A program made the translations under genes and the position numbers. DNA of 64,000 nucleotides from Dehalococcoidia bacterium (GTDB lineage: Bacteria > Chloroflexota > Dehalococcoidia > UBA2979): NCBI GenBank assembly GCA_964291495.2, contig OZ219871.1:672001-736000 (forward strand). Reading direction: 5' to 3'. Numbering within the stretch: position 1 is the stretch's first letter; every line of letters starts with the position of its first letter. Below the pieces are notes generated by a model, which did not search any database, was not told the DNA's origin, and saw only the letters and a program-made list of their open reading frames with translations. Below are positions 2,256-52,631 of the stretch, one piece after another.

Positions 2256-2283
2256 TTGACGTGCATCTTTCGGGCGATAGAAT
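2256..2283 (+). promoter_or_regulatory. Sigma70-type promoter TTGACG-16-TAGAAT containing AmtR-like operator copy 1 (2267-2283)
   Basis: TTGACGTGCATCTTTCGGGCGATAGAAT upstream of the CoA-transferase at 2473; the 17-mer recurs identically six times. Confidence 0.8.
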
Positions 2284-2472
2284 GCGTTCGATCTGCCGTG
2301 AGCATGACCGTGGTGGCGGTGCCCTATCACCAGCTCGAGTGGCTCGGCCGTGGTTCGGTCTGCGGCCTCCGCTCGCTCCCGCTGCGAGTGACCCCGCGGA
2401 GCTGATCACCCGCCCGCGCGACGATCCGGGGCGAGGCGCGCGGGCTTCGCCGGCGACCCGAAGGGGGCTGCC

Positions 2473-3687
2473 TTGGCTCAGCTGCTCGAGGGCATGCGGG
2501 TGCTCGATCTGGGCCGGAACGTGGCGGCGCCATTCGCCGCCAAACTCCTCGCGGACTACGGCGCGGAGGTGCTCAAGGTCGAACCCCCTGCCGGCGACCC
2601 GGCGCGCCGCGTGGGCCCGTTCCTCCGCGACGAGCCCAACCCGGAGACCTCCGCGCTCTTCCTGCACCTCAACACCAACAAGCGAGGCATCACCCTGGAC
2701 CTCGCGACGCCCGAGGGGCAGCGCATCCTGCGGCGGCTCGCCGCCGACGCCGACGCGATCGTCGAGGACTTCGCACCCGGCCAGCTGGAGGCGTGGGGCA
2801 TCGGTTACGAGGCGCTCGCGGCCGATCATCCGGAGCTGGTCCTCGCCTCGATCACGCCGTTCGGGCAGAGCGGCCCGTACCGCGACTACCGCGGCTCGGA
2901 GATCACGCTGCAGGCGCTGGGCGGTTCGCTACACAGCAACGGATCGGCCGAGCGCTACCCGGTGAAGCTGGGCGGACACGCCGCGCACTACTACGCGGGC
3001 ACTGCAGCGGCGCTGGCGGTGATGCTCGCCTGCTACCGCGTCGATGGGGGTGAGCGTGGCGACTGGATCGACCTCGCGGTGTACGAGACGCAGGCGGGCT
3101 CGATGGACCGGCGGAGGTACTTCCTGACCGTCGCCGCCTACACCGGCTACCCGGCGCGCCGCCAATCGCCGGGCTCGCACGTGATCTCGGGCGTACGGCC
3201 GACGCCTGATGGCTACGTCAACGTCGCCGGCATGCACCGCCCGGATGCGCTGCTCCGCCTGATCGGGCGCGACGACCTGCTGGGCCCCGAGGGGATCGAA
3301 CGGTCGGCGTTCACGGAGCCGGGCGCCTTCCTCGAGGAGGTCGAGACCTCCTTCCTCGGCTGGCTGCTTCAGCGCGGCAAGCGGGAGGTCGTGGACGAGA
3401 TGCAGGAGCGGCGCATCCTCGCGGGGCTGTTGCAGACGACCGAGGACCTGCTGGAGGACGAGCACTACCGCAGCCGCGGCGTGTGGGAGACGGTGGACCA
3501 TCCCGAGACCGGGCCGATCGAGTACCCCGGCCGGCAGCTCGTCCTCAGCGAGACGCCGAAGGCGCCGGCCGTGCGCGCCCCGCTGCTCTCCGAGCACACC
3601 GCCGAGGTGCTCGTCGGCGAACTCGGCGCGGACCTCGGGCTGACGCACGCCGACCTGCCGCGACTTCGCGCCGAGGGGGTAGTCTGA
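2473..3687 (+). CDS. Family III (CaiB/BaiF) CoA-transferase lacking the catalytic Asp (BbsE-like subunit)
   Basis: LEGMRVLDL, LADYGAEVLKVEP, LNTNKRGITLDL; GHAAHYYAG has His at the Asp position. Confidence 0.9.
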   Translation: MAQLLEGMRVLDLGRNVAAPFAAKLLADYGAEVLKVEPPAGDPARRVGPFLRDEPNPETSALFLHLNTNKRGITLDLATPEGQRILRRLAADADAIVEDFAPGQLEAWGIGYEALAADHPELVLASITPFGQSGPYRDYRGSEITLQALGGSLHSNGSAERYPVKLGGHAAHYYAGTAAALAVMLACYRVDGGERGDWIDLAVYETQAGSMDRRRYFLTVAAYTGYPARRQSPGSHVISGVRPTPDGYVNVAGMHRPDALLRLIGRDDLLGPEGIERSAFTEPGAFLEEVETSFLGWLLQRGKREVVDEMQERRILAGLLQTTEDLLEDEHYRSRGVWETVDHPETGPIEYPGRQLVLSETPKAPAVRAPLLSEHTAEVLVGELGADLGLTHADLPRLRAEGVV

Positions 3688-3700
3688 TGGCCGCACCGCC
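3649..3700 (+). repeat. 52-bp imperfect direct repeat, copy 1 (CoA-transferase stop/start junction)
   Basis: 42/52 identical to 4518-4569 by manual alignment. Confidence 0.8.
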
Positions 3701-3745
3701 AAGGACTGGAGGCACGTCCGGTGCGGCGAGCGAGAGGAGCCGACG

Positions 3746-4492
3746 ATGAGCGAACGACTCAGAATCGGAGTCATGCTCCCGGCGGGGGACGGTACAGCCG
3801 AGCCGGATTTTCAGAGGCTCTTCGCGCCCTTTGGGGTCACCGTGCACAGCCACCGGCTCTGGCATGAGAGCGAACTCGAACCTCTGACCCGCTTCGACCG
3901 CATGAACTCCCAGATCGCCGAGGCGACCAGATACCTTTCGAGAGTGGACCTCGCCGCGATCGCATATTGCTGCACGGGAGGGAGCTTCTATCGAGGGTCG
4001 GGCTGGGACACCGAGATATTGCAGTTGATCGAGTCCGCCTCCGGAGGAACACCGGCGTTCGCCACCAGTCCCTCCGTCATCAAGGCGCTTCGCTCAGTGG
4101 GCGCGAAGAAGGTGTCGGCGATCACCCCGTACCCGGACTGGTTCAACGAGAGGCTACGGCTGTACCTGGAGGCGAAGGGCCTCGAAGTGCTCAATGTGGA
4201 TGCGCATCCAACGCCGGCTTCCCGCGTGATCCCCATCTACGATCATGACCCCGAGGAGATAGTCGAATTCGCACGCGAGAAATGCAGCCCGGACGCCGAC
4301 GTCCTGCTGTGTTCGTGCACCGACTGGCGTTCGCTGGAGGTCGTGAGCCGGTTGGAGGAGCAGCTTGGGATACCGGTCATCACCTCGAATCAGGCCACGA
4401 TCTGGGACATTGCGCAGAGACTCGATCTACCCGGACCCATCGATGGATACGGCAGCTTGTTCAAGGGGCTTGGTGCGGCGGTGGCCGGCTAG
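3746..4492 (+). CDS. Maleate cis-trans isomerase / Asp-Glu racemase family protein
   Basis: RIGVMLP, YCCTGGS, ITPY, CSCTDW and PVITSNQA; two catalytic Cys motifs. Confidence 0.88.
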   Translation: MSERLRIGVMLPAGDGTAEPDFQRLFAPFGVTVHSHRLWHESELEPLTRFDRMNSQIAEATRYLSRVDLAAIAYCCTGGSFYRGSGWDTEILQLIESASGGTPAFATSPSVIKALRSVGAKKVSAITPYPDWFNERLRLYLEAKGLEVLNVDAHPTPASRVIPIYDHDPEEIVEFAREKCSPDADVLLCSCTDWRSLEVVSRLEEQLGIPVITSNQATIWDIAQRLDLPGPIDGYGSLFKGLGAAVAG

Positions 4493-4517
4493 TGCTTGAC
4501 CAGGTCGCAGCAAGCGC

Positions 4518-4569
4518 GCCGACCTGTCGCGGCTCCGCGAGCACGGGGTAAGCTGATGGCCGCGCCGCC
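4518..4569 (+). repeat. 52-bp imperfect direct repeat, copy 2
   Basis: Encodes the remnant ADLSRLREHGVS* overlapping the ATG of the next gene, mirroring ADLPRLRAEGVV* at 3649-3687. Confidence 0.8.
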
Positions 4570-5911
4570 GCCCCCTGGGAACACGCCGCGACGCCTCCCC
4601 CTCGAGGGCGTTCGCGTGGCCACGATCACGGTCTTCTGGGCGGGACCGCACGTCACGCAGTTGTTGGCGGAGTGGGGCGCCGACGTCGTCCGCGTCGAGC
4701 CGATCAACGTCGTGCAGCCGGGCACGCGGTTCGCCGAGCACGTCGCCACGCCCGAGCAGGCCCGGGAGCTGGCGGAGCAGGGGCAGATCTTCGTCTACTA
4801 CCCCGACTTCGATCCGGGCGACGAGCCCTGGAACCGCAACTCCGAGTTCAACGCGCACTCCCGCAATCAACGGTCGATGGCCGCCGACATCATGCAACCC
4901 GAGGGCCGCGAGGCGTTGCTCCGCCTGATCGAGCAGAGCGACGTGTTCATCGAGAACAACGTCCCCGAGACAATCGAGCGGGCGAACCTCACCTACGAGG
5001 CGCTGCGCGAGGTCAACCCCCGGATCATCGTGCTGCGGATGCCAGCGTACGGCCTCGACGGCCCGTACAAGAACTACCGCGCGTGGGGCACCCACGTGGA
5101 GGGGATGATCGGCCACCACCTGATCCGCTCCTACCCGGACGAGACGCCGGACCGCATGAGCCCCGCGTTCACGGCCGACGCGCTCTCCGGCGTGACCGGC
5201 GCGTTCGCCGTGGTCGCGGCGCTTCGCCATCGCGACCGCACCGGCGAGGGCCAGCAGATCGAGATGCCGCTCGCCGAGGCGTACCTGCCGGCGCTCGGTG
5301 AGTACATCCTCGACTACACGATGAACGGCCGGATCACGCCCCAGCTCGGCAACCGGCACCACGCCCACGCGCCCCACGGCGTCTACCCGACGGCCGGCGA
5401 GGACCACTGGATCGCCATCGACGTCGGTTCCGACGAGGAGTTCGCCGCGCTCTGCGACATCCTCGAGGCCCCCGCGCTTGCCGCGGACGAGCGCTTCCAG
5501 ACGAGCCAGGGCCGCTGGATGGAGTCGGAAGCGCTCGATGCGGAGCTGGGCGCCTACACCCGTGCGCACGATCGCCACGAGCTGTTCCACGCGCTGCAGC
5601 GCGCCGGGGTCACGGCGGCGCCGGTGCACGACGAGCTGGACGCGTTGGCCTCGGAGCAGCTGGCCGCGCGCGAGTGGTTCGAGGAGACCGAGTATCCCGG
5701 CGTCGGGACGCACCGCTACCCGGGACTGCTCTTCAGGATGGCGAACACGCCGAATCGCGTGCCCACGCCACCGCCGCGGCTGGGCGAGCACAGTCGCGAC
5801 ATCTACCTCGAGTTGCTCGGCTACAGCGCCGAGGAGTACGAGGCGCTCGAGGCTCGCGGGCTGGTCGGCGAGGGCTATGCGCCCGGTGTCGTGCAGTGGC
5901 CCTCGGACTGA
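4556..5911 (+). CDS. Family III CoA-transferase with catalytic Asp (BbsF-like subunit)
   Basis: PLEGVRV, WAGP, LAEWGADVVRVE and FTADALSG; start at ATG 4556. Confidence 0.9.
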   Translation: MAAPPPPGNTPRRLPLEGVRVATITVFWAGPHVTQLLAEWGADVVRVEPINVVQPGTRFAEHVATPEQARELAEQGQIFVYYPDFDPGDEPWNRNSEFNAHSRNQRSMAADIMQPEGREALLRLIEQSDVFIENNVPETIERANLTYEALREVNPRIIVLRMPAYGLDGPYKNYRAWGTHVEGMIGHHLIRSYPDETPDRMSPAFTADALSGVTGAFAVVAALRHRDRTGEGQQIEMPLAEAYLPALGEYILDYTMNGRITPQLGNRHHAHAPHGVYPTAGEDHWIAIDVGSDEEFAALCDILEAPALAADERFQTSQGRWMESEALDAELGAYTRAHDRHELFHALQRAGVTAAPVHDELDALASEQLAAREWFEETEYPGVGTHRYPGLLFRMANTPNRVPTPPPRLGEHSRDIYLELLGYSAEEYEALEARGLVGEGYAPGVVQWPSD

Positions 5912-17399: not shown

Positions 17400-18128
17400 T
17401 CAGGATGCGACGGGTGCGGCCGGCTGGACGACGGCGGGCGCCAGCTCCGGCACCTGCGCCGCGAGTTCCATGCCTTCCTCGATGATCTCGGTGAGGCGCT
17501 GCAGGTCGATCAGCCCGCAGAGCAGCACGGAGCGAGCGGTGACCCTCGCCACGATCAGCCGATCGTGTTTTCTTGCATCGAACCAGGCGACCGGGCTTCC
17601 GACGACCCCGAACACGAACTCCGTCATGAGTTCGAGGTTATCGACCCTCACGGTTCCTTCCTCGCTGGCGAGGTTGAGGTAGCGCCCGTACCAGCCCTGA
17701 AGCTCGCGGCGCTTCTCCCAGAACCCCTTGAAGCGTGGGCGCTGGGCGTCAGGGAGGCGGGCGAGCAGCGCGAGGTTGTACGGCCCCGAGCAGTAGTTGC
17801 GGACATCGAGGTAGGTCAGCGCCCAGAGTCGGGCCGCCCCACTCGCACCAGCGACGTCGAGCAAGCGCGCTACTTGCAATGGAGCGTCGACGGTGCGATC
17901 GAGCAGCTCCGCGAGGATGTCGTCCTTGCGCGCGAAGTAGTGATAGAGCGAGCCCTGGCGCAACCCCGCCGCCTCGGCGATCTCGCGGGTGGTGGTCCCA
18001 CGGAAGCCGTGCTCGGTGAACAGTCGCCCTGCCTCGAGCAGGATGTGCTCCGCCGGCTCGATGTCGAGTGTGCTCTCGACGGCTCGAGGGCGCCCGATAC
18101 GTCGACCGCTCGGCTCGCTGCCGCTCAT
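17400..18128 (-). CDS. amtR: TetR-family repressor, AmtR-like
   Basis: IGRPR N-terminus, GLRQGSLYHYF helix-turn-helix and RLWAL...NLALLARLP C-domain parallel the Corynebacterium glutamicum AmtR sequence as I recall it (VGRPR, GIRQASLYYHF, RLWAI...NVGRLYQLP). Confidence 0.8.
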   Translation of the reverse strand: MSGSEPSGRRIGRPRAVESTLDIEPAEHILLEAGRLFTEHGFRGTTTREIAEAAGLRQGSLYHYFARKDDILAELLDRTVDAPLQVARLLDVAGASGAARLWALTYLDVRNYCSGPYNLALLARLPDAQRPRFKGFWEKRRELQGWYGRYLNLASEEGTVRVDNLELMTEFVFGVVGSPVAWFDARKHDRLIVARVTARSVLLCGLIDLQRLTEIIEEGMELAAQVPELAPAVVQPAAPVAS

Positions 18129-18376: not shown

Positions 18377-18404
18377 TTGACAGGCATCTTTCGGGCGATA
18401 GAAT
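18377..18404 (+). promoter_or_regulatory. Promoter TTGACA-16-TAGAAT containing AmtR-like operator copy 2 (18388-18404)
   Basis: TTGACAGGCATCTTTCGGGCGATAGAAT between the divergent TetR and DUF1800 genes. Confidence 0.82.
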
Positions 18405-18465: not shown

Positions 18466-19869
18466 ATGGCCACGCAGACCGAGGTGCGCACCGACGCCGC
18501 GCTGCTTGCCCATCTCTACCGGCGGGCGGGGTTCGGGGCGACGCGCGATCAGATCGACCGCCTCGCCACGCGTGACTATTCCGAGGCAGTCGAGTTCCTG
18601 CTCAATCCCACGCCCGAGACGGGCGTGGCGGACGACCTGGTCGCGCGCTATCTCGGAGGCGAGACGCCACAGGCCTACCTGGCCGCGTGGTTGTTCCGGA
18701 TGATCAACTCGGAGAACCAGCTGCAGGAGAAGATGGCGCTGTTCTGGCACCACGTCTTCGCCACGGGCCTCACCAAGAACGAGCACGCGCTGGCCGCGTC
18801 GACCCAGATCGAGCTGTTCCGGCGCAACGGACTGTCCGACATGCGGACGATCCTGCTCGACCTCTCGCGCGACCCGGCGATGATCTTCTGGCTGGACAAC
18901 AACGAAAACCACCTCGGCGAACCGAACGAGAACTACGGGCGCGAGCTGCTGGAGCTGTTCTCGCTCGGCGTGGGCAACTACAGCGAGATCGACATCAAGC
19001 ACGCCTCTCGCGCGTTCACCGGGTGGACCTTCGAGCAGCCGCTCCCGCTCTACCCGTACGGCTTCTACGACGCCGAGTTCCGCTTCAACCCGGACGACCA
19101 CGACAACGACGAGAAGACGTTCCTCGGCCACACGGGCAACCTCGACGGTGGCGATGTGATCGACATCATCGTCGAGCAGCCCGCCTGCGCCCGGTTCATC
19201 TCGCGGCACCTGTACAACTTCTTCGTCGCCGACGAGGTGCAGGTGCCGAGCTGGAACGACGTTCCGCCGCGCGATCCCGAGCTGATCGAGGCGATGGAGG
19301 CCGCGTTCACGGAGTCGGGCGGCGAGATCAAGCCCGTGCTGCGCGTGATGTTCAACTCCGACTCGTTCAAGAACGCTCGCTTCCAGAAGGTGAAGAGCCC
19401 GATCGAGCTGGTCGCCGGCATGCTCAAGCTGGCCGGGAACGACCAGGACTTCCGGCCCGACCTCTCCGTGTACGTCGCCGTACCGATGGGCGGAGCGGCA
19501 ATGACGACCGTCGCGATGGGCCAGAAGCTCCTCGATCCCCCCACCGTCGAGGGCTGGCACACCGGCAAGGAGTGGATCGACGGCGGGATGCTGGTCGAGC
19601 GCGTGAACTTCGCGGTGGAGGAGATCGGCGACGGCTCCGATCCCGGCATCGCTCGCCTCATCGAGCGGCTCATCGAGAGCGGCGCGCTCGCCACGCCGGA
19701 GGGGCTCGTCGACGGCGCCCTCGATGCGCTGGGCCCGATCGCGGTCGACGAGACCACGCGCGAGGGGCTCCTCAGCTTCGCCGCGGACTCGGCGAGCGAC
19801 GACGACCGCACGCGCGTCCTGCGCATGCTGCGGCTGATCGCCTCCACGCCCGACTTCCAGTTCGCCTAG
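18466..19869 (+). CDS. DUF1800 family protein
   Basis: AHLYRRAGFG, LQEKMALFWHHVFAT, DPAMIFWLDN, PNENYGRELLELFSLG, PPTVEGW; start at ATG 18466. Confidence 0.92.
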   Translation: MATQTEVRTDAALLAHLYRRAGFGATRDQIDRLATRDYSEAVEFLLNPTPETGVADDLVARYLGGETPQAYLAAWLFRMINSENQLQEKMALFWHHVFATGLTKNEHALAASTQIELFRRNGLSDMRTILLDLSRDPAMIFWLDNNENHLGEPNENYGRELLELFSLGVGNYSEIDIKHASRAFTGWTFEQPLPLYPYGFYDAEFRFNPDDHDNDEKTFLGHTGNLDGGDVIDIIVEQPACARFISRHLYNFFVADEVQVPSWNDVPPRDPELIEAMEAAFTESGGEIKPVLRVMFNSDSFKNARFQKVKSPIELVAGMLKLAGNDQDFRPDLSVYVAVPMGGAAMTTVAMGQKLLDPPTVEGWHTGKEWIDGGMLVERVNFAVEEIGDGSDPGIARLIERLIESGALATPEGLVDGALDALGPIAVDETTREGLLSFAADSASDDDRTRVLRMLRLIASTPDFQFA

Positions 19870-35959: not shown

Positions 35960-36832
35960 ATGACTGAGCCTGCCATCCACAACTGGGGCCGCTGGGGCGA
36001 AGACGACCAGCTGGGGACGCTCAACCTGCAGTCGCCGGAGAGCGTGCTGCGCGCGCTGCAACTCGTCCGCCGCGGCAAGGTCTACAACCTCTCCGTGCCG
36101 CTCGCGGAGCACGGCCCGCAGGCCCCGATGTTTCACAAGACGTGGCAGACGACCTCTCTCTACACGAGCCCCGAGCCCGACGCCGTCGACTTCGCAGGTG
36201 ACGTGGTCACCATGGTGACGCAGTCGGGCACGCACCTCTGTGGGCTGTCGCACTGCTGGACCGACAACACGCTCTGGAACGGCGTCGGCCACGACAGGAT
36301 CACCAGCTACGGCTCCGCATGGGCGGGTGTCGAGAACATCCCGGCGTTCGTCTCCCGCGGGGTGATGCTCGACATCGCGAAGTTCAAGGGCGTGGAGCAC
36401 CTCGGTCTGGGCGAGGTGGTGACGGCCGAGGACATGGAAGCGTGCGCCGCCGCGCAGGGCACGGCGGTTGAACCCGGCGACGTGCTGCTGGTGCGCACGG
36501 GCTGGCTCAAGCTCTTCGAGAGCGACCGCGAGCGGTGGGAGCAGGGCTGCCCCGGTCCCGACGCCTCGTGTACGGCGTGGCTGCGCGAGAAGGACGTGAT
36601 GGCCATCGGCGCCGACAACCTCGCCGTGGAAGCGGACGTGCGCGCGAACCCCTTCCCCACGCGCCTGAAGTTGCACCTCACCGCGATGCGCGATCTGGGC
36701 GTGTACATGATCGCGACCCTCGACCTGGAAGCGCTGGCGGCGGACGAGGTCCATGAGTTCCTGTTCATCGCCGCGCCGCTGCGCATGCCCGGGGCCACCG
36801 CCTCGCCGCTGACGCCGCTCGCGCTGGCGTAG
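35960..36832 (+). CDS. Cyclase family protein with altered metal ligands (paralogue of 32858-33733)
   Basis: Near-identical N-terminus; QSGTHLCGLSH in place of HSGTHLDALGH. Confidence 0.88.
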   Translation: MTEPAIHNWGRWGEDDQLGTLNLQSPESVLRALQLVRRGKVYNLSVPLAEHGPQAPMFHKTWQTTSLYTSPEPDAVDFAGDVVTMVTQSGTHLCGLSHCWTDNTLWNGVGHDRITSYGSAWAGVENIPAFVSRGVMLDIAKFKGVEHLGLGEVVTAEDMEACAAAQGTAVEPGDVLLVRTGWLKLFESDRERWEQGCPGPDASCTAWLREKDVMAIGADNLAVEADVRANPFPTRLKLHLTAMRDLGVYMIATLDLEALAADEVHEFLFIAAPLRMPGATASPLTPLALA

Positions 36833-36843
36833 GGGTCCGTGTC

Positions 36844-38289
36844 GTGAGCGCTCCCCGCGCCAGCACCCTGATCCGAGGCGGCACGGTCGTCACCGCGGAA
36901 TCGAGCCACGTCGCGGACGTAGCGATTGCGGACGGCACGATCACGGCCGTCGGGCCGCCCTCGGCGATGCCGGAGGCGGACGAGACGATCGACGCCACGG
37001 GGAAGCTGATCTTCCCCGGCGCGATCGATCCACACTTGCACCTCGGCTTTGGTGAGGACTGGCGGCTGATCTCGAAGATGGCCGCGCGGTCCGGCATCAC
37101 CACGATCATCCCGTTCATCGAGCTTGAGCGCGGCGCGGACGGCATCGAGTCGATCCCGGAGGCGATACGACGGTCGAAAGGCGAGTTCTCCGGCCAGCTC
37201 GTCACGGACGCTTCGATGCACGTGATCGTCCCCGGAGCGGCGGAAGGGTTCCCGGGCGCGTTCGAGGCGCTCGACACCGGCATCCCGGAAGCGGTCGCGC
37301 TGGGCGTCAGCTCCTTCAAGTTCTTCATGACGTACAGCCTCGCCGGATACATGGCGTCGGACGGGTACCTCCTGCGCGCGATGGAGGTCGCCGGTCGCTC
37401 GGGCGGTGTGATTCAGCTGCACTGCGAGAACGGCGCCGTCCTCGACTACCTGCGGGACGAGGCGATCCAGGCGGGCAGGACGAAGCCCAGCGACTATCCG
37501 CCGACGTGCCCTCCGTGGGCGGAGGCCGACGCCGTCAGTCGCGCGATCCTTATGGCCCGCGCCGCCGGCTGCGCGATCTACGTCGTCCACCTCTCGACCG
37601 GGGACGGCCTGTCCCGGATCAGCGAGGCCCAGGCGGCCGGCCAGCCGGTGTGGACGGAGACGTGCCCGCAGTATGTCGTGCTCGACGACAGCGAGATGGA
37701 GCGCCTGGGGCCCTTCGCGAAGATCGGCCCGCCGCTGCGATCACGAGCGGAGGGGCACCAGGACGCGCTCTGGCAGGGGCTCCGGGACGGCCGAATCTCG
37801 ACGGTCGGCAGCGATCACGCGCCAGAGGAATCGGCCGCCAGGGAACACGGCTGGGAGAACATCTTCCTCCAGCCCGACGGAACGTCGGTGCCCTTCGGAT
37901 CGCCCTCGATCGAGACGATGGTCGCCATCACCTACCACGAGGGCGTCGTCGAGCGCGGCCTGTCGCCGTCGTGGTTCGCACGGGTGATGGCCGAGAACAG
38001 CGCCCGGCTCTTCGGCCTGTACCCGCGGAAGGGCGCGATCCGGGTCGGCTCCGACGCGGACTTGCTGATCCTCGATCCGGACGCGAGCTGGACGATCCGG
38101 GCCGAGGACCTGCTGTGTCCCGCCGGGTACACCCCGTACGAGGGCCGCGAGGTGCGCGGCCGCCCGTGGATGACCTTCCTCCGTGGTCGCGCGGTGCTGC
38201 GCGACGGCGAGGTGGCAGTTGGCCCGGGCTCGGGCGAGTTCGTCCCCGCGGGGGGCCGCACCGCGCCTCTGGGGTTCGGGTCGGCGTAA
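36844..38289 (+). CDS. Dihydropyrimidinase/hydantoinase/allantoinase-family cyclic amidohydrolase
   Basis: IDPHLH, SFKFFM, LHCEN, VVHLS, ETCPQY, GSDH, KGAIRVGSDAD. Confidence 0.9.
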   Translation: MSAPRASTLIRGGTVVTAESSHVADVAIADGTITAVGPPSAMPEADETIDATGKLIFPGAIDPHLHLGFGEDWRLISKMAARSGITTIIPFIELERGADGIESIPEAIRRSKGEFSGQLVTDASMHVIVPGAAEGFPGAFEALDTGIPEAVALGVSSFKFFMTYSLAGYMASDGYLLRAMEVAGRSGGVIQLHCENGAVLDYLRDEAIQAGRTKPSDYPPTCPPWAEADAVSRAILMARAAGCAIYVVHLSTGDGLSRISEAQAAGQPVWTETCPQYVVLDDSEMERLGPFAKIGPPLRSRAEGHQDALWQGLRDGRISTVGSDHAPEESAAREHGWENIFLQPDGTSVPFGSPSIETMVAITYHEGVVERGLSPSWFARVMAENSARLFGLYPRKGAIRVGSDADLLILDPDASWTIRAEDLLCPAGYTPYEGREVRGRPWMTFLRGRAVLRDGEVAVGPGSGEFVPAGGRTAPLGFGSA

Positions 38290-40047: not shown

Positions 40048-41190
40048 GTGAGCTTGCGGGGACGGACGGCGATCGCCGGGTACTGCGAACTGCCCACGAG
40101 GCGCACGTACCCCGGTCGCAACACCTTCAGCCTGCTGGCGGAGGCGGCGCGCGGCGCGATCACGGACGCTGGACTCCGGCAAGCCGACATCGACGGCCTG
40201 ATCTGCTCGGGGGTCATGCCGATGTCGCTCGCGGAGCACTTCCGGCTCAAGCTGCGCTTCACGGAATCGATGACCGTGCAGGGCGCCGGTCCCGCGGGTT
40301 CGATCGTGACGGCGGCGGCCGCGATCCACGCAGGGCTGGCGAACTACGTGCTCTGCGTCTTCGGCGAGTCGCTCCAGGACGTCCCATGGCCCGTGCGCGC
40401 AACGACCGCCGAGTGGGAGGCCCCGTTCGGCCCGGTGATCGCCGCCAACGGCGACTACGGACTGATCAAGCAGCGCTACATGTTCGAGTTCGGCACGACG
40501 CAAGAGCAGTTCGCCAAGTGCGCCGTGGACGAGCGCTTCAACGCCGCCGACAACGAGCACGCGGTCTGGGCCGGGCAGCCGATCAGCATCGAGGACGTCC
40601 TCAACTCGCGCTTCACGAACGACCCGCTGCACCTGCTGGAGAGCGTGATGCCCTGCTCCGGCGCGGCGGCGGTGATCGTGACCTCGGCCGACCGCGCTCG
40701 CTCGCTGCGGAACCCGCCCGTCCACATCCTCGGGGCGGCCGGGCCGGCCACCTCGCACCACTCGATCTGGCAGGAGGACGAGATCACGACGACTCCGGTG
40801 GTGCTGTCCGCCCCGACTGCGCTGGAGATGGCGCAGTACAGCGTGCGCGACGTGGAGTTCGCGCAGTTCTACGACCCCTACACGATCCTCGTGATGATGA
40901 CGCTGGAGGACGCCGGCATCTGCCCAAAGGGCGAGATCGGCGCCTTCTACGAGGAGACCGACACGACCTACAAGGGCGAGTTCCCGATCAACACGGACGG
41001 CGGCCAGATCGGAGCCGGGCAGCCCGGCGACGCAGGCGGCCTCCGCCACGTCGTCGAGGCCGCGCGCCAGATCATGGGGCGCGCCGGCGTGCGGCAGGTG
41101 GAGCGCAACGACCTCTGCCTGGTCAACGGAAACGGCGGCTTCGCAAGCGTCCAGGCCACGCTGGTGCTCGGTTCGAGCGCCACCCTTTGA
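40048..41190 (+). CDS. Thiolase-fold protein (SCP2/Ltp2-like), uninterrupted paralogue of 15274-16419
   Basis: QFYDPYT, INTDGGQIGAGQPG, CLVNGNGG. Confidence 0.9.
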   Translation: MSLRGRTAIAGYCELPTRRTYPGRNTFSLLAEAARGAITDAGLRQADIDGLICSGVMPMSLAEHFRLKLRFTESMTVQGAGPAGSIVTAAAAIHAGLANYVLCVFGESLQDVPWPVRATTAEWEAPFGPVIAANGDYGLIKQRYMFEFGTTQEQFAKCAVDERFNAADNEHAVWAGQPISIEDVLNSRFTNDPLHLLESVMPCSGAAAVIVTSADRARSLRNPPVHILGAAGPATSHHSIWQEDEITTTPVVLSAPTALEMAQYSVRDVEFAQFYDPYTILVMMTLEDAGICPKGEIGAFYEETDTTYKGEFPINTDGGQIGAGQPGDAGGLRHVVEAARQIMGRAGVRQVERNDLCLVNGNGGFASVQATLVLGSSATL

Positions 41191-41214
41191 CAGTCACCTT
41201 TCGGGCGATAGAAT
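41187..41214 (+). promoter_or_regulatory. Promoter TTGACA-16-TAGAAT containing AmtR-like operator copy 4 (41198-41214)
   Basis: TTGACAGTCACCTTTCGGGCGATAGAAT; the -35 box overlaps the thiolase TGA stop codon. Confidence 0.82.
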
Positions 41215-41262: not shown

Positions 41263-42486
41263 ATGGACTGGCTGGATACGCCCGAGCAGGCCGAGTTCCG
41301 TGCCGAGGTGCAGGCGCTGCTGCGTGACCACCTCCCGGACTTCTACCGCCGCGCCAGCGAGGAGGAGATCGGCGAGGAACGCGGGGGCGGCTGGGTCGCG
41401 GACCGCAGGTCCGAGGATCCGGAGCGACGTGGGGCGGCCGACGCCTGGGCAGACGCGATCTCCGCACGGGGCTGGTTCGCGCCTCACTGGCCCGTCGAGT
41501 ACGGCGGCGCCGGGCTCGGCCCGGACGAGCAGTTCATCTTCCGACAGGAGCTGGCGCGCGCCGGCGCGCCGCTCGTGGGCGCCGGCGGCGTCCGACTGCT
41601 CGGCCCCACCCTGATCGTCTACGGCACCGAGGAGCAACGCGCGCGCTACATGCCGGAGATCCTCTCCGGCGAGGTGGTGTGGGCGCAGTGCTACTCGGAG
41701 CCGGGCGCCGGCTCCGACCTCGCCTCGCTGCAGACGCGAGCGGAGCTCGAGGGCGACGAGTGGGTGATCAACGGACACAAGGTCTGGACCACGAACGCCC
41801 AGCACGCCGACGCGCTGGTCCTCCTCACACGCACCGACCCGACCGCGCCACGACACCGCGGCATCTCGTTCCAGCTGATCGACGACATCCACACCGAGGG
41901 GCTCTCGGTCCGCCCCCTGATCAACATGGCGTGGGGCCACGAGTTCAACGAGGTCCACTTCGAGAACGTGCGCACGCCCGCCTCGCACGTGGTCGGCGAG
42001 GTCAACCGCGGGTGGTATCCCGCCCTCTCGATGCTCGACTTCGAGCGATCGGACATCAACGTCGTCGTCCACCTCGAGCGCGCACTCGATCGGCTCGTCG
42101 CGTACCTCGAGACCGAGGCCGGCGCCCGGCAGGCGCGCCTGACGCCGACGGTGCGGCACGAGATCGCGGATCGCTTCCTGGAGGTGGCGGTCGCCCAGAA
42201 CTTCTCGCTCTGGATGCTGTCGATGCAGAACGACGGTGTGATTCCGAACTACGAGGCGTCGATGACGAAGCTGTTCATCTCGGAGTGCAATCAGCTGCTT
42301 GCCCAGACCGGCACCCGCATCTTCGGGCTGTACTCGAACATCTGGGACGCGAGCGAGCGGGCTCCGCTGAACGGCGGGTTCACCCGTCACTACGTCCTGA
42401 CCGTCCCCGACACGATTGAGGGCGGCACCTCGGAGATCCAGCGCAACATCATCGCCACGCGCGGGCTGGGGCTGCCGCGCAGCTAG
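41263..42486 (+). CDS. Acyl-CoA dehydrogenase
   Basis: YSEPGAGSDLASL, INGHKVWT, FNEVHF, TIEGGTSEIQRNII. Confidence 0.93.
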   Translation: MDWLDTPEQAEFRAEVQALLRDHLPDFYRRASEEEIGEERGGGWVADRRSEDPERRGAADAWADAISARGWFAPHWPVEYGGAGLGPDEQFIFRQELARAGAPLVGAGGVRLLGPTLIVYGTEEQRARYMPEILSGEVVWAQCYSEPGAGSDLASLQTRAELEGDEWVINGHKVWTTNAQHADALVLLTRTDPTAPRHRGISFQLIDDIHTEGLSVRPLINMAWGHEFNEVHFENVRTPASHVVGEVNRGWYPALSMLDFERSDINVVVHLERALDRLVAYLETEAGARQARLTPTVRHEIADRFLEVAVAQNFSLWMLSMQNDGVIPNYEASMTKLFISECNQLLAQTGTRIFGLYSNIWDASERAPLNGGFTRHYVLTVPDTIEGGTSEIQRNIIATRGLGLPRS

Positions 42487-42588
42487 CTGCGCGCCGCCGC
42501 GTCGCGGCCCTGCCCGGACCGTTGCCCGGTCGCCTGAGGGGTCGCGCATACGCTGTACGTGTAACCGAGCGCCTGAGGAGGCAGACAG

Positions 42589-43794
42589 ATGAGCGAGCAG
42601 GGGCCGCTGGCCGGAATCAGCGTCGTCGAGCTGGCGAGCTGGATGATGACGCCGGCGAGCGGCAGCATCCTCGCCAGCTTCGGCGCGGACGTAATCAAGA
42701 TCGAGCCCGCGGGCTCGGCCGACCCGATCCGGCGGCTCAACGAGGTCGGCGTGGGCGCGGGCGGGCTCGAGCCGAGCTTCGAACTCGCGAACAACGGCAA
42801 GCGCAGCATGCAGCTCGACATCCGGTCCGGGGCGGGGCGCGAGGTCGTGCACCGCCTGCTCGAGGGTGCGGACATCTTCCTCACCAACGTGCGCGCACAG
42901 GCGCTCGAGCGCGCCGGGCTGGGCCTTGAGGCGCTGCACGAGCGCTACCCCCGGCTGATCGTGGCGCACGGCAGTAGTTACGGGAGGGTTGGCCCCGTCG
43001 CCCACCATCCGTCCTTCGACGAGCTCGCGTACTGGTCGCGCGGCGGCATGGCGACCGCGCTCCAGGACGAGGGCGCGCTTCCGGTTGCGATCAACGGGGC
43101 GATGGGCGACCTGCCCACGGCCGTCACCCTCGCCGCGGGGATGCTCCTCGCGCTCTACCGCCGGGAGCGAGAGGGGGTCGGCGCGATCGTCGACGTCTCG
43201 CTCTACCAGTGCGGGCTCTGGGCGAACGGGACGGTCCTCGCCGCGGCCCTGGCGGGCGTGCAGTTCCGCCCGAGGATCGGCCGGCATCACCCGTTCAATC
43301 CGCTGGACACCTCGTACCAGTGCGCCGACGGCTCCTGGGTGCAGTTCGCGATGTTGCAGCCGACCCGCTACTGGGGGCTGCTCTGCGAGGCGCTGGACCG
43401 TCCGGACCTGGCCGACGACCCCCGCTTCGATACGATGGAGCACCTGTTCGAGCATGTGCCCGAGGCGACCGCCGAGCTGGAGCGGGCGGTCGGCGTCTTC
43501 ACGCGCGAAGAGCTGGGCCGACGCCTCGAGAGCCGCGACCTTCCCTGGGCGCCGCTGTTCGACGCCGGGGACATCGTGAGCGACGAGCAGGCGCGCGCGA
43601 ACAACTACTTCGTCACGAAGCAGCACCGTTCCGGCGTCGAGATGGAGACGCTCGCGCCCCCGTTCGGTCTGCGCGACGAGGAACCGCAGATGGAGCCCGC
43701 GCCGGAGGCCGGCCAGCACACGGAGGAGGTGCTGCTGGAGCTGGGCTACGGCTGGGACGAGATCGGGGAGCTGCGGGAGCGCGGCGCGTTCTAG
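42589..43794 (+). CDS. Family III CoA-transferase (close paralogue of 28470-29675)
   Basis: Same length (401 aa) with long identical blocks; GAMGD. Confidence 0.9.
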   Translation: MSEQGPLAGISVVELASWMMTPASGSILASFGADVIKIEPAGSADPIRRLNEVGVGAGGLEPSFELANNGKRSMQLDIRSGAGREVVHRLLEGADIFLTNVRAQALERAGLGLEALHERYPRLIVAHGSSYGRVGPVAHHPSFDELAYWSRGGMATALQDEGALPVAINGAMGDLPTAVTLAAGMLLALYRREREGVGAIVDVSLYQCGLWANGTVLAAALAGVQFRPRIGRHHPFNPLDTSYQCADGSWVQFAMLQPTRYWGLLCEALDRPDLADDPRFDTMEHLFEHVPEATAELERAVGVFTREELGRRLESRDLPWAPLFDAGDIVSDEQARANNYFVTKQHRSGVEMETLAPPFGLRDEEPQMEPAPEAGQHTEEVLLELGYGWDEIGELRERGAF

Positions 43795-46427: not shown

Positions 46428-47450
46428 CTACGACAGGCCGGCCTTCAGCAGGTCGAGCGTCTCGGCCGTGGGAACCTCGGTCGTGATCGGAAGCGTCACG
46501 CCCGCATCGAGGTACGCGCCCAGTCGCTCGCGCACCTCGTCGGGCTCGCCGACACAGCCCAGCGCCGCTACCGCCTCGTCGGGGATCAGCGTCGCCGCCT
46601 CCGCGTAGTCTTCGGCGGGCGCGGGCCATCCGCCGGGCGCCATCGCGCGCACGCGCTCCGCGAGCTCCGGATCAACCCCGGACGGCGACTCGACGTGAGG
46701 CTGCTGAGCGAGGAAGCGCGCGAAGTAGACCTTCTGCCGTTGCAGCGCCGCACGCTTGTCGCGCGTGACCAGCACGCGGACAGGCATCACCCGCTCGATC
46801 TCATCCAGCGAGCGGCCGGCCGCCTCGGCGCCTTCGGCGATCCGGGCAACGGCATCGCGGATCGCCTCGACCGGATGAGCCCCGTTGAGCACAACGCCGT
46901 CCGCGATGCGACCGGCCAGGCGCAGCATCTGCGGTCCGACCGCGCCGATGAAGATCTTGACGTCGTGGCCGCCGTCGCCCGGGTGGTCGAGGTAGGCGCG
47001 GTCCAGGTGAGCGTAGGTGCCGTCGTAGCTCGCCTCCTGGTCGCGCGGGAGGAGCAGCCGAAGCGCCTCGATCACCTCGCGCATCACGCGGATGGGCGCC
47101 TTGCGCTCGACCCCGACGCGCGTCGCCAGCGGATCCCACCACGCTCCGAGGCCGATCACGATCCGGCCCGGGGCCAGCATGTCGAGCGTCGCGGCCGTCT
47201 GGGCAATAAGCGCCGGATTCCGCGTCCAGACCGGGATCACCGAGCAGCCTACGCGAAGGCGCTCGGTTCCCGCGGCGAAGACGGCCATCGGCGTGATCGC
47301 ATCGGTCTCGAGCCCGGTCTCATAGACCCAGACCGAGTCCGCGCCGGCCGCCTCCATCGCCTGTGCGTGCTCGAGGTTGAGCCTGAGGTCGTGCCCGGTG
47401 AGCGTGACCCCGAAGGGAATGGGACCGCTGGACGAGACTGAAGACGGCAC
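46428..47450 (-). CDS. LLM-class oxidoreductase (Mer-like, possibly F420-dependent)
   Basis: DSVWVYE, TRNPALIAQTAATLD, GAVGPQMLRLAGRIADG; start at GTG 47450 after GGAGG. Confidence 0.88.
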   Translation of the reverse strand: MPSSVSSSGPIPFGVTLTGHDLRLNLEHAQAMEAAGADSVWVYETGLETDAITPMAVFAAGTERLRVGCSVIPVWTRNPALIAQTAATLDMLAPGRIVIGLGAWWDPLATRVGVERKAPIRVMREVIEALRLLLPRDQEASYDGTYAHLDRAYLDHPGDGGHDVKIFIGAVGPQMLRLAGRIADGVVLNGAHPVEAIRDAVARIAEGAEAAGRSLDEIERVMPVRVLVTRDKRAALQRQKVYFARFLAQQPHVESPSGVDPELAERVRAMAPGGWPAPAEDYAEAATLIPDEAVAALGCVGEPDEVRERLGAYLDAGVTLPITTEVPTAETLDLLKAGLS

Positions 47451-47495
47451 GCTCGTTCCTCCTGCCGGGGACAACCCCCAGGCTCTCGCTCGGTC

Positions 47496-47523
47496 ATTCT
47501 ATCGCCCGAAAGACGGGAGTCAA
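47496..47523 (-). promoter_or_regulatory. Promoter TTGACT-16-TAGAAT containing AmtR-like operator copy 5 (47496-47512)
   Basis: Minus strand reads TTGACTCCCGTCTTTCGGGCGATAGAAT upstream of the LLM gene. Confidence 0.82.
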
Positions 47524-50360: not shown

Positions 50361-51590
50361 TTAGCTGCGCGGCAGTCCGAGTCCCCGAGTGGCGATGATG
50401 TTGCGCTGGATCTCCGAGGTGCCACCGCCGATGGTCGCCACGACCGTCTGCAGGTAGCGCCGCGGGAAGACCGCCTGCATCGGTGCGCGATCGTGCTCGG
50501 CATCCCAGATGTTGGAGTAGAGACCGAACACCTTCATGCCCGTGCGCGCGAGCCGCTGCAGGCTCTCCGAGATGAACATCTTGGCCACCGAGGCCTCGTA
50601 GTTCGGGATCTGGTCCGCGTTCTGCAGCGTGATGATGCGCCGCGAGAAGTTCACCCCGACCTCAGCCTCGAGACACCGCTCGGCGATGTCGTGCCGCGCG
50701 GCCGGAGTCAGCTTCGCCTGTTGCCGGCTCCGCTCCGAGCCTGCGTACGCGATCAGGCGCTGGAGGTCGCGCTGCAGCGCGACCGCGCCGCTGATGTTGG
50801 AGCGCTCGAAGTCGAGCAGCGTGACGCCCACGTACCAGCCACGGTTGACCTCGCCGACGACGTTGGACGCAGGCGTGCGCACGTCCTCGAAGAACGTCTC
50901 GTTCACGCCGTGCTGCCACGCCATGTCGATCAGCGGGCGCACCGAGAGGCCGGGCGTGTTGATGTCGTCGACCAGCAGGAACGAGATCCCGCGGTGCTTC
51001 GGCGCCTCGGGGTCGGTGCGCACGAGCACGAAGATTGCGTCGGCGTGGTGGGCGTTCGTGGTCCAGATCTTCTGCCCGCTGATCACCCACTCGTCGCCAT
51101 CGCGCACGGCGCGCGTCTGCAGCGAGGCGAGGTCGGACCCCGCCCCCGGCTCCGAGTAGCCCTGCACCCACGCCGTCTCGCCGGAGAGGATCTTCGGCAG
51201 GTACTTCGCCCGCTGCTCCTCGGTGCCGTAGACGATGATCGTCGGGCCAAGGTAGGCCGTGCCGTCGCCGCCGAGGTCCAGGGGGGTCCCCGCCAGCGCC
51301 ATCTCCTGCTTGAGGATGAACTGCTCGTTCGGTGAGAGCCCGGCGCCCCCGTACTTCCGAGGCCAGTGCGGCGCGAACCAGCCCCGCTCCGCGACCGCCT
51401 CGCCCCAGGCATCGGCTGCCTCGCGACGCTCGGGGTCGTCGGAGTTGCGGTCGGCGACCCAGCCGTGGTGGTAGGTGACGGCGCGGTCGTCCTCGGCCAG
51501 CCGCCGGTAGTAGTCGGGGAGCCGATCACGCAGCAATTCGCGTACCTGCTCGCGGAACCCGGCCTGCTCGGCCGTGTCATCCCAGTCCAT
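50361..51590 (-). CDS. Acyl-CoA dehydrogenase (paralogue of 41263-42486)
   Basis: YSEPGAGSDLASL, GQKIWT, TIGGGTSEIQRNII. Confidence 0.93.
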   Translation of the reverse strand: MDWDDTAEQAGFREQVRELLRDRLPDYYRRLAEDDRAVTYHHGWVADRNSDDPERREAADAWGEAVAERGWFAPHWPRKYGGAGLSPNEQFILKQEMALAGTPLDLGGDGTAYLGPTIIVYGTEEQRAKYLPKILSGETAWVQGYSEPGAGSDLASLQTRAVRDGDEWVISGQKIWTTNAHHADAIFVLVRTDPEAPKHRGISFLLVDDINTPGLSVRPLIDMAWQHGVNETFFEDVRTPASNVVGEVNRGWYVGVTLLDFERSNISGAVALQRDLQRLIAYAGSERSRQQAKLTPAARHDIAERCLEAEVGVNFSRRIITLQNADQIPNYEASVAKMFISESLQRLARTGMKVFGLYSNIWDAEHDRAPMQAVFPRRYLQTVVATIGGGTSEIQRNIIATRGLGLPRS

Positions 51591-51675
51591 CGGCTACTCT
51601 CCCTGCGGTCGCGCCGCAGCCGGCGACAGCGAGACCGATCCCGTGTGGAGGACCGGCTCGCGGCTTACTGATCGA

Positions 51676-52521
51676 TCAGGTGAGCCCCAGCAGCTGCGCG
51701 GCGTTTCCGCCAAGCCACTTCTCGGTGACCTCGGGCTTGAGCGGAAGCTCGCGCAACTCACCGACCGCCCGATCGAACGGGACCATGCTGTTGGTCGCAA
51801 ACAGTACCTGGTTCTGCAGCAACGAATTGCCGAACTGCAGCAGCGTCTCCCAGCCCGAGCCGGGAGTCCCAATGTACTTCGGCGCCACCGCCCCGATCTC
51901 GATGTAGACGGTGCTGTGCTTCCATGCGATCGCGACCAGCTCGTTCACCCACGGCCATCCTCCGTGGTTCGCGACGATCGTCAGCTCCGGGAAGTCGCAG
52001 GCGATCTCGCACAGGTAGAGCGGCCGCCCGAACTCGATCGACCGGTTGTTCGAGAAGTTGATCGAGGCGTGGATCGTGACCGGCACGCCGAGTTCCTGGC
52101 ACTTCTGGTACAGCGGGTAGAAGCGCTTGTCGTTGGCCTTCAGGCGGTACGCGAAGGGCTGCAGGTTCACGCCCCGCATGCCTCGTTCGGTGATTTCGCG
52201 CTCCACGACGGCGACCATGTCGTCGTCCGTGCCGGGATTGACGGTGCAGTAGCCCGTGAAGCGCTCGGGATACTCGCGGACGACGTCGACCACCTCGTTG
52301 TTGAGCGCCCGATAGTCGCCCGAGGACCACTCCGCCTGCAGCACCGCATGGTCGACACCCGCCGCATCCATCGCGGCCACCAGGGCCTCCGGGGTGGAGC
52401 CACCTCCCAGATCGCTCGCGTAGACACGACGGTAGGTGGTCAGGTAGCTCCTGTCCTCGTCGTCTTCGCCCTCAGGTCGCCGCGCCAGCGACGGAGCGTC
52501 CACGCGAAAGTCGATGATCAC
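51676..52521 (-). CDS. Amidohydrolase_2 family protein (close paralogue of 13326-14168)
   Basis: Near-identical C-terminal two-thirds; VLFATN in place of VLFATD. Confidence 0.9.
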   Translation of the reverse strand: MIIDFRVDAPSLARRPEGEDDEDRSYLTTYRRVYASDLGGGSTPEALVAAMDAAGVDHAVLQAEWSSGDYRALNNEVVDVVREYPERFTGYCTVNPGTDDDMVAVVEREITERGMRGVNLQPFAYRLKANDKRFYPLYQKCQELGVPVTIHASINFSNNRSIEFGRPLYLCEIACDFPELTIVANHGGWPWVNELVAIAWKHSTVYIEIGAVAPKYIGTPGSGWETLLQFGNSLLQNQVLFATNSMVPFDRAVGELRELPLKPEVTEKWLGGNAAQLLGLT

Positions 52522-52603
52522 CCGGCCACCCTCCCCAAGATTCGTCGCCTGGACGCGGCGGGCCAGCCACGCACGTAGCCGGGACGCTCTTGCAGGCGGT
52601 CTG

Positions 52604-52631
52604 ATTCTATCGCCCGAAAGATCGGCGTCAA
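52604..52631 (-). promoter_or_regulatory. Promoter TTGACG-16-TAGAAT containing AmtR-like operator copy 6 (52604-52620)
   Basis: Minus strand reads TTGACGCCGATCTTTCGGGCGATAGAAT upstream of the amidohydrolase gene. Confidence 0.82.

Follow-up and report, generated by a model that had tools for sequence, protein, structure and literature searches.

A recurrent putative promoter-operator and an AmtR-subfamily TetR protein in a catabolic gene island of a soil Dehalococcoidia bacterium

A 64,000-nucleotide stretch of the genome of a soil Dehalococcoidia bacterium (NCBI GenBank assembly GCA_964291495.2, contig OZ219871.1, positions 672,001 to 736,000; referred to below as the window) encodes several operons of breakdown enzymes that are probably switched together. 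A 17-nucleotide box recurs at the promoters of these operons, and a TetR-type protein of the AmtR subfamily is encoded in the same stretch (17400-18128). We propose from the sequences that this protein probably binds the box and represses six or seven transcription units by blocking RNA polymerase. Directly observed are the copies of the box, the anatomy of their promoters, their conservation and clustering, and the family of the protein.

From these observations we infer binding, repression, the nature of the effector, and the extents of the operons. A TetR dimer would bind the pseudopalindrome aT-CTTTC-GGGC-GATAG-AAT. Because the box forms the spacer and the -10 element at five sites, bound repressor would bar RNA polymerase there; at copies 3 and 7, where a separate promoter has its start point within the box or shortly before it, the repressor would block initiation or early elongation. 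A signal that frees the repressor would turn on the six or seven units together, and the set switched in this way would comprise family III coenzyme A (CoA)-transferases, acyl-CoA dehydrogenases, a thiamine diphosphate (ThDP) enzyme, an F420-type oxidoreductase, an amidohydrolase, and a unit of DUF1800, DUF1501, and NHL-repeat proteins. As to the effector, an acyl-CoA would be a sensible starting guess, given that the nearest relatives of the protein outside AmtR sense acyl-CoAs and that its proposed targets are CoA enzymes.

Putative promoter-operators in the window

The 17-mer ATTCTATCGCCCGAAAG occurs exactly at six positions, 2267(-), 18388(-), 28375(+), 41198(-), 47496(+), and 52604(+), and a seventh, variant site with three mismatches lies at 31687(+). 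Allowing up to three mismatches, we found 7 matches in the window (69.3% G+C), compared with a mean of 0.08 (maximum, 1) in 100 dinucleotide-preserving shuffles, none of which reached 7. Genes were mapped by picking 57 candidate open reading frames (ORFs) from the ORF list with the aid of third-position G+C content and scanning them against Pfam, and on this map all six exact copies are intergenic. An earlier note on this DNA had given these six positions, placed every copy between genes, and named the genes behind them as a CoA-transferase, DUF1800, CoA-transferase/ThDP enzyme, acyl-CoA dehydrogenase (ACAD), luciferase-like monooxygenase (LLM), and amidohydrolase; a rescan returned the same positions, and the Pfam-supported map upheld both the locations and the gene names. 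The imperfect palindrome that it described is likewise real, with 6 of 8 positions pairing in TCTATCG-CC-CGAAAGA.

When up to five mismatches were allowed, the only sites that looked meaningful were 31687, its counterpart in L015, and a 2-mismatch site in L022 (L numbers denote loci from the genome-collection search described below). A further sequence at 9772-9788 (TTTCTATCGCTCGATTT) has 5 mismatches, retains one half-site (TTCTATCG), and lies ~45 nucleotides (nt) upstream of a minus-strand gene for the solute-binding protein of an Opp-type ABC transporter; it may represent a weak site, a decayed one, or a chance match.

Alignment of the six copies with ~115 nt on each side revealed GTCAA six bases past the 17-mer in five of them, while the other flanks were unrelated. 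Read on the opposite strand, the full repeated unit is TTGAC-N6-CTTTCGGGCGATAGAAT, and the five copies have the form TTGAC-N6-CTTTCGGGCGA-TAGAAT, a near-consensus sigma-70 promoter facing the adjacent gene, with a gap of 16 nt between -35 and -10 (taking TTGACn as the hexamer) and with the palindrome overlying the spacer and the -10 element. The element, previously presented as a bare operator, is thus better described as a promoter-operator composite, the orientation of which is tied to the downstream gene in five of six cases.

Promoters were defined as TTGACA- and TATAAT-like hexamers spaced 16 to 18 nt apart and facing a gene, and the transcription starts referred to here are predicted. 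By these criteria there are only 10 sigma-70-like sites on both strands of the whole window; the five motif-bearing promoters match 10 or 11 of 12 consensus positions and make up five of the best six. Copy 2 (11/12) is the sole promoter-like site in 17300-18700 (shuffle mean, 0.0), and the ATG at 18466 is preceded by a ribosome-binding site, GGGGGAGGGG. Copies 4, 5, and 6 lie in very short gaps between co-directional genes and would therefore act as internal promoters. The -35 element of promoter 4 (TTGACA, 41187-41192) includes the TGA stop codon (41188-41190) of the upstream thiolase-like gene.

Copy 3 is inverted relative to its gene (the CoA-transferase at 28470), has no TTGAC of its own, and lies at about +10 to +30 of a separate promoter, TTGACG-N17-TAGGAT (28330-28358; 9/12), which is another of the 10 sites and is situated 16 nt upstream of the copy. 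Site 7 has a similar layout, in which an extended -10 element is followed by three bases and then by the box, upstream of the agmatinase-like gene at 31785. The coordinates of the promoter-operators, the regulator gene, and the target units are collected in Table 1.

Table 1. Regulator gene, promoter-operators, and proposed target units in the window
Feature	Coordinates	Strand	Description and basis
Promoter-operator 1	2256..2283	+	TTGACG-N16-TAGAAT, 17-mer 2267-2283, 10/12; faces CoA-transferase 2473; orthologous copies in L002, L036
Target unit 1	2473..5911	+	Family III CoA-transferase (2473-3687), Amdase/EutA-like protein, family III CoA-transferase; Pfam
AmtR-subfamily TetR repressor gene (242 amino acids, P0001)	17400..18128	-	Pfam TetR_N, PDB sequence, profile, fold
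Promoter-operator 2	18377..18404	+	TTGACA-N16-TAGAAT, 17-mer 18388-18404, 11/12; faces DUF1800 18466; orthologous copies in L007, L022, L015
Target unit 2	18466..22112	+	DUF1800 (18466-19869), DUF1501, NHL-repeat protein; Pfam
Promoter plus inverted copy 3	28330..28391	+	TTGACG-N17-TAGGAT 28330-28358 (9/12), 17-mer 28375-28391; block conserved in L012, L008, L040
Target unit 3	28470..31440	+	Family III CoA-transferase (28470-29675), ThDP enzyme (29758-31440; oxalyl-CoA decarboxylase/2-hydroxyacyl-CoA lyase-like); Pfam
Variant site 7	31671..31703	+	Extended -10 TGCTATAAC, then ATTCTGTTGGCCGAAAG (3 mismatches)
Possible target unit 7	31785..38289	+	Agmatinase-like, cyclase, LLM, cyclase, hydantoinase-like; Pfam and NCBIfam; extent inferred from shared strand
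Promoter-operator 4	41187..41214	+	TTGACA-N16-TAGAAT, 17-mer 41198-41214, 11/12; faces ACAD 41263; orthologous copy in L009
Target unit 4	41263..43794	+	Acyl-CoA dehydrogenase (41263-42486), family III CoA-transferase; Pfam
Target unit 5	46428..47474	-	F420-type luciferase-like oxidoreductase; Pfam Bac_luciferase (E = 3.6e-68); NCBIfam F420 LLM below cut-offs
Promoter-operator 5	47496..47523	-	TTGACT-N16-TAGAAT, 17-mer 47496-47512, 10/12; faces LLM 47474 or nearby GTG; orthologous copies in L001, L044
Target unit 6	50361..52521	-	Amidohydro_2 protein (51676-52521), acyl-CoA dehydrogenase; Pfam
Promoter-operator 6	52604..52631	-	TTGACG-N16-TAGAAT, 17-mer 52604-52620, 10/12; faces Amidohydro_2 52521; orthologous copies in L020, L014

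Their rank as the best TTGAC-N16-TAGAAT sites in the window, and an orientation that follows the downstream gene at every TTGAC-bearing copy, would also suit a strong promoter module and nothing more, used by the housekeeping sigma factor or by a specialized one that also reads the spacer, with no repressor involved. We consider this improbable. Sigma-70 needs no fixed 11-nt spacer sequence, and the conserved part is palindromic. Moreover, sites of the copy 3 type keep 17 of 17 bases in four genomes even though they are inverted, lack TTGAC, and lie downstream of another promoter, and the site 7 variant keeps the box beside a different, extended -10. The invariance of the 17-mer had been taken in the earlier note as a sign of additional base contacts; the invariance itself stands, but part of it (TAGAAT) is the -10 hexamer.

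It is scarcely credible that the motif works at the RNA level, in the manner of a leader or riboswitch. The box would indeed be transcribed at copies 3 and 7, and copy 1 has a long G+C-rich leader, but five of the six copies place the box before the expected start point, and the 17-mer occurs in both orientations relative to the gene. Rfam returned 0 families at gathering thresholds for the whole window, so no known RNA element explains the motif. The leader itself (2284-2472, ~190 nt), which separates promoter 1 from the start of the CoA-transferase gene, shows 90% conservation across 108 nt in L036 and is absent in L002, where the gene starts ~40 nt past the motif. Its predicted fold is -89 kcal/mol for 183 nt, a value without shuffle control, and it has no Rfam match.

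The AmtR-like protein and its fit to the box

The protein encoded at 17400-18128 is a member of the AmtR subfamily, and the likeness extends across both domains, as the earlier note had proposed and as sequence, profile, and fold comparisons with the PDB bear out. TetR_N (PF00440) was recognized above its cut-off at residues 29-75 (E = 5.9e-16). The six best PDB sequence matches were all AmtR: Mycobacterium smegmatis 5e57 (E = 1.3e-26) and Corynebacterium glutamicum 5dxz, 5dy0, 5dy1, 5mqq, and 6gy3 (2e-18 to 1e-16; 5dy1, 1.8e-18). These alignments reach approximately residue 149, and those with C. glutamicum AmtR begin at the N-terminal GRPR.

A protein search returned 45 relatives at E values of ≤1e-10, the closest of which are 96%, 85%, and 82% identical. 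The query and 33 of the 45 formed a family alignment of 34 sequences; partial, low-coverage, and near-duplicate sequences were excluded (P0005, P0016, P0021, P0032, P0034, P0038, P0039, and P0042 to P0046). The resulting profile matched 5e57 at 2.2e-50 over profile positions 20-224 of 230 and the C. glutamicum AmtRs at 1e-46 to 7e-43, versus 3.7e-24 for the next TetR protein. An AlphaFold (AF2) model built from the family alignment (predicted local distance difference test, 89.9; predicted template modeling score, 0.83) is uncertain only in the N-terminal arm and C-terminal tail. In a Foldseek search of the model against the PDB, the best 11 chains listed were AmtR, with template modeling scores of up to 0.83 normalized to the target; the margin in fold of AmtR over KstR2 is small (1e-9 versus 6e-8). 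No NCBIfam model reached its curated cut-off with the protein, and none of those listed bears the AmtR name.

Residues that would read DNA are retained in part. The GRPR at residues 12-15 aligns with the GRPR of C. glutamicum AmtR, and G12, R13, P14, and R15 are each conserved in at least 90% of the 34 family members. For C. glutamicum AmtR, the excerpt of PMC2723105 on which we draw (all articles cited here by PMC number are represented by excerpts) names T42, Q53, S55, Y57, Y58, and H59 as important; by manual count, 4 of these 6 are identical here (T47, Q58, S60, and Y62, equivalent to T42, Q53, S55, and Y57).

The C. glutamicum AmtR box, tttCTATN6AtAGat/aA, is found on either strand, and its 6-nt spacing is essential (PMC2723105). 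The window motif aTTCTAT-CGCCCG-AAAGat matches this box at 7 of 8 capital positions and in spacing (PMC2723105), and CTAT-CGCCCG-AAAG is present in all six exact copies, which suggests an operator of the AmtR type. A second consensus, TAtCTGTCa-n2-cGACAGATAT, is given for AmtRs of Streptomyces avermitilis, M. smegmatis, and others; the CTATC-GCCC-GAAAG of the window shares its pentad-N4-pentad layout with A/T-rich flanks, and site 7 has CTGT (PMC8864220). An operator of C. glutamicum printed in a primer for a synthetic gate, TTTCTATCGATCTATAGATAAT, has the octamer TTCTATCG in common with the window motif and agrees with it at 14 of 20 aligned positions by hand count (PMC7058928). The resemblance to AmtR boxes pointed out in the earlier note is therefore sustained in half-site and in spacing by the sequences in PMC2723105 and PMC8864220.

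The position of His43 in C. glutamicum AmtR is occupied in TetR by an Arg that contacts the G of CTATC, a base pair that is not conserved in the C. glutamicum boxes (PMC2723105). In the window protein the equivalent residue is Arg48, which is conserved in at least 90% of the family and is also Arg in M. smegmatis AmtR. Because Arg48 is conserved in the family and CTATC is invariant in the box, the fifth pentad position would be read directly, which would account for two of the six "spacer" bases. AmtR is among the TetR-DNA complexes in which arginines read minor-groove bases (PMC10827105), and since GRPR is conserved here, the GRPR arm is a candidate for the remaining contacts. As for the asymmetric position (CTTTC versus GATAG), we speculate that a perfect palindrome would make a second TAGAAT facing the opposite way.

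Comparison with known systems places the protein nearest to the AmtRs but in a different setting. C. glutamicum AmtR (5dxz, 5dy0, 5dy1, and 5mqq) has the same TetR fold and GRPR arm and shares the equivalents of T42, Q53, S55, and Y57, at ~26 to 28% identity in the fold alignment. It acts as a global regulator of nitrogen metabolism, with at least 35 genes under its control (PMC8864220, PMC7919409), whereas the candidate targets here are genes of CoA-dependent catabolism gathered in one island. Adenylylated GlnK is proposed to release it, with no small-molecule effector known (PMC8864220, PMC7919409), and the AmtR-GlnK complex has not been reconstituted (PMC7919409). M. smegmatis AmtR (5e57), the best match to the window protein by both sequence and fold, is a local repressor with a very small regulon and is not released by urea or amino acids (PMC4222082). 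The AmtRs of the M. smegmatis and S. avermitilis type are actinobacterial, and their conserved targets (an amino acid permease, urea carboxylase, and amidase under GlnR control) differ from those here (PMC4222082).

More distant members of the superfamily share some of these features. TetR and tetO have the CTATC half-site in common with the window system, but the CTAT tetrads of tetO are spaced by 5 nt rather than 6 (PMC2723105), and TetR is a far weaker match than AmtR (NCBIfam TetR, E = 5.9e-4). The acyl-CoA-sensing regulators KstR2 and FadR (Bacillus, Thermus) are the next-best sequence and structural neighbors after AmtR. They repress CoA-dependent catabolic genes, resembling the target set proposed here, but are weaker than AmtR by at least 19 orders of magnitude in the profile search.

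Conservation and linkage in related genomes

A genome collection of 596 Gb was searched for the exact 17-mer, and the matches were retrieved with 2-kb flanks. This yielded 52 loci, 13 of them in three genomes labeled Dehalococcoidia, in line with the Chloroflexota host surmised in the earlier note. The chromosome OY839116.1 (3.22 Mb) has 6 exact copies within 50 kb, in the same strand pattern as in the window; CBDCPB010000004.1 (3.11 Mb) has 4 within 72 kb; and the chromosome OZ252046.1 (3.58 Mb) has 3 within 17 kb. Outside the cluster, the rest of the two complete chromosomes (3.22 and 3.58 Mb) contains zero exact copies, so that on the scale of a whole chromosome exact copies of the motif are confined to one place.

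The remaining 39 loci come from 38 unrelated genomes with one copy each, except for one metagenome-assembled genome with two on separate short contigs. Approximately 70 would be expected for a random 17-mer in 596 Gb on both strands, so these loci fit a chance origin. At the -35 offset, TTGAC is missing from all 39 but present in 10 of the 13 Dehalococcoidia loci; these 10, like the five in the window, all face a gene starting 40 to 325 nt downstream. The 3 loci without TTGAC are all of the copy 3 type, and in them all 17 bases and the flanks with the upstream TTGACG...TAGGAT promoter are conserved.

Comparison of the 13 loci with the window proteins by blastx showed that OY839116 has all six site types, with shared genes at 89 to 98% protein identity, that CBDCPB01 has the types of copies 2, 3, 5, and 6, and that OZ252046 has those of copies 1, 2, and 3. 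In every case the gene that follows the motif is the orthologue, and the upstream neighbor varies. Upstream of copy 1 we found an ACAD (window), a malate synthase-like gene (L002), or a cyclase (L036), and upstream of copy 2 the TetR gene (window and L007), a hydantoinase-like gene (L022), or an agmatinase-like gene (L015). Since the upstream neighbors differ between genomes, the motif goes with the downstream gene. In groups 1, 2, and 6 the upstream DNA is unalignable between genomes, yet TTGAC and the 17-mer are intact, forming a conserved island.

We rejected the idea that the copies derive from a short mobile or duplicated element, whether resembling a repetitive extragenic palindromic (REP) sequence or a miniature inverted-repeat transposable element or spread by duplication of genes, because their flanks cannot be aligned. 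Paralogues are numerous in the window and other families of intergenic repeats occur there, which would suit such an origin, but we regard it as very improbable. Similarity between the copies stops within ~28 bp, the flanks are unrelated, and no terminal repeats were seen; paralogues such as the Amidohydro_2 gene at 13326 lack the motif, and the rest of the two complete chromosomes is without exact copies.

Site 7 is probably functional, because its block GATGTGCTATAACCTCATTCTGTTGG(C/T)CGAAAG is kept with one change upstream of the agmatinase-like orthologue in L015, within an otherwise diverged intergenic region. In L022 (1662-1678), the hydantoinase-like gene of CBDCPB01 is preceded, at a distance of ~60 nt, by a copy with 2 mismatches (ATGCTATCGCCCGAACG) and no -35 element; the hydantoinase-like gene of the window directly follows the cyclase and has no corresponding site.

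The TetR gene is divergent from copy 2, as the earlier note had it, and its start lies 260 nt from the motif. The adjacency was also found in one relative, OY839116, where the TetR start is ~890 nt from the motif with a small ORF inserted between, but not in the two other relatives, which have no TetR gene within 2 kb of their DUF1800 promoter copy. In a tblastn search with the TetR protein against all 52 loci with their 2-kb flanks, L007 alone gave a match.

Several points weigh against repression of the box by this protein. Of the three relatives, one alone has a TetR orthologue (L007, 94% identity) within 2 kb of a copy; hydantoinase-like and agmatinase-like genes take its place beside the DUF1800 promoter copy of CBDCPB01 and OZ252046. 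This varying neighborhood weakens the argument from co-localization. In CBDCPB01 the TetR gene probably lies at another place on the contig. Autoregulation is not evident, as neither a second box nor a clear promoter was found in the interval from the motif to the start of the TetR gene; here the system resembles C. glutamicum amtR, which is not autoregulated (PMC2723105), and differs from M. smegmatis amtR, which is (PMC4222082). At the protein level, Y58 and H59 of C. glutamicum AmtR are replaced by H63 and Y64 (manual count on the PDB sequence alignment), and half-site reading does not account for the constancy of the central GGGC. The invariance across genomes is in part an effect of ascertainment, inflated since exact 17-mers alone were scanned.

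Alternatively, the box may be the operator of a different regulator, encoded outside the window, with the AmtR-like TetR a bystander that controls something else. Consistent with this, the TetR gene is not beside any exact copy in two of the three relatives, no box is close to its own start, and the seen part of the source genome is 64 kb. We nevertheless consider a second regulator unlikely. The motif matches AmtR boxes in half-site and spacing (PMC2723105, PMC8864220), 4 of the 6 residues named as important in C. glutamicum AmtR are identical, and M. smegmatis amtR is likewise remote from its targets (PMC4222082). No other regulator was seen beside the copies in the 13 related loci when translations were read by eye, with no family search made. 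Within the window there is no other TetR gene among the 57 scanned ORFs; the sole other regulator is a PadR protein at 62545. Binding by the AmtR-like protein remains the explanation that we favor.

Where the related loci have no counterpart of a window gene, their translations look like toxin-antitoxin modules, a group II intron reverse transcriptase, hydrolases and other enzymes, one secreted protein, and unannotated ORFs. Small ORFs adjoin the motif copies of the relatives where the window has short spacers (promoter-oriented coordinates: L008 and L040, 2466-2861; L012, 2015-2425; L007, 1698-1949; L044, 2-970). Judged by their translations alone, these are PIN-domain toxin-like, Phd/YefM-type antitoxin-like, and ribbon-helix-helix antitoxin-like, together with a group II intron-type reverse transcriptase.

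Target units, possible rewiring, and neighboring features

The earlier note had described a 50-kb regulon; the promoter map narrows this from the whole stretch to six or seven transcription units that lie within the 50 kb. With NCBIfam, no model reached its curated cut-off for the 17 target proteins, so the targets are named at family level only. None of the genes behind the six exact copies is a nitrogen gene of the kinds considered (amt, gln, or ure; permease, urea carboxylase, or amidase). Agmatinase-like and hydantoinase-like genes are preceded only by variant site 7, the amidase gene of the window has no box in scans at up to five mismatches or in the promoter scan, there is no urea carboxylase in the window, and no PII gene was found among the 57 scanned ORFs. 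Judging from gene content, the label "nitrogen regulator" is not justified here.

The window contains 7 family III CoA-transferases, 4 acyl-CoA dehydrogenases, 3 thiolase-like proteins with 2 DUF35/ChsH2-type partners, 5 amidohydrolases (from three families), 2 cyclases, and 2 luciferase-like oxidoreductases, and several of the paralogue pairs are 79 to 88% identical in DNA. The promoter-operator is present on some paralogues only: the Amidohydro_2 gene at 51676 has it, and its 87% identical twin at 13326 does not.

We tentatively put forward a further hypothesis, which goes beyond binding and repression and which we hold to be possible, though less likely than those. An AmtR-family repressor may have been rewired outside the Actinobacteria from nitrogen control to carbon catabolism, such that it senses an intermediate, for example an acyl-CoA, rather than GlnK or nitrogen status, and holds six or seven of the strongest promoters of the island shut through an operator fused to the -10 element. 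If this were so, the invariance of the 17-mer would reflect joint reading by sigma, by the recognition helix (Arg48 on CTATC), and by the GRPR minor-groove arm.

A repressor operator that overlaps the -10 element and spacer is textbook regulation, and AmtR-type boxes are known. What is new is the phylum, the target set, an invariant box fused with the strongest promoters of an island, and its conservation at orthologous genes in four rearranged genomes. A full-text literature search restricted to AmtR in the phylum retrieved no paper linking AmtR with Chloroflexi, Chloroflexota, Dehalococcoidia, or SAR202, and the findings would extend the AmtR subfamily beyond Actinobacteria and nitrogen control. 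To our knowledge, little is known about regulation in uncultured, non-dehalogenating Dehalococcoidia. These organisms have large paralogue families of CoA-transferases, acyl-CoA dehydrogenases, and flavin/F420 oxidoreductases, among which a shared promoter-operator would mark the paralogues that act together. Since a pathway intermediate would be the expected inducer, the element would also help in tracing the substrate. Synthetic gene circuits already make standard use of AmtR (PMC7058928), and a relative with a distinct box inside a strong promoter could be a useful orthogonal part.

Other features of the window were noted in passing. At the end of the DUF1800/DUF1501/NHL unit (22135-22902), a HEPN-domain gene is immediately preceded by an ORF of 112 amino acids that matched nothing in Pfam or NCBIfam, a layout that we take to be typical of a nucleotidyltransferase-HEPN toxin-antitoxin pair. 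The PadR-family regulator (62545-62964) is encoded between two ABC-2 type transporter sets (59772-63998) and lacks the 17-mer; a sigma-70-like site is found just upstream of padR (62484-62512). We regard this as a separate small regulatory unit. Two intergenic families of REP-like, G+C-rich palindromic repeats are unrelated to the 17-mer. The first, of the type CCCTCTCCCC...GGGGAGAGGG, occurs at 31497-31537, 38310-38346, 38422-38462, 50044-50089, 50239-50284, and 55581-55633. The second has a 40-nt unit, 93 to 95% complementary between pairs, at 38371-38410, 43846-43885, and 50146-50185.

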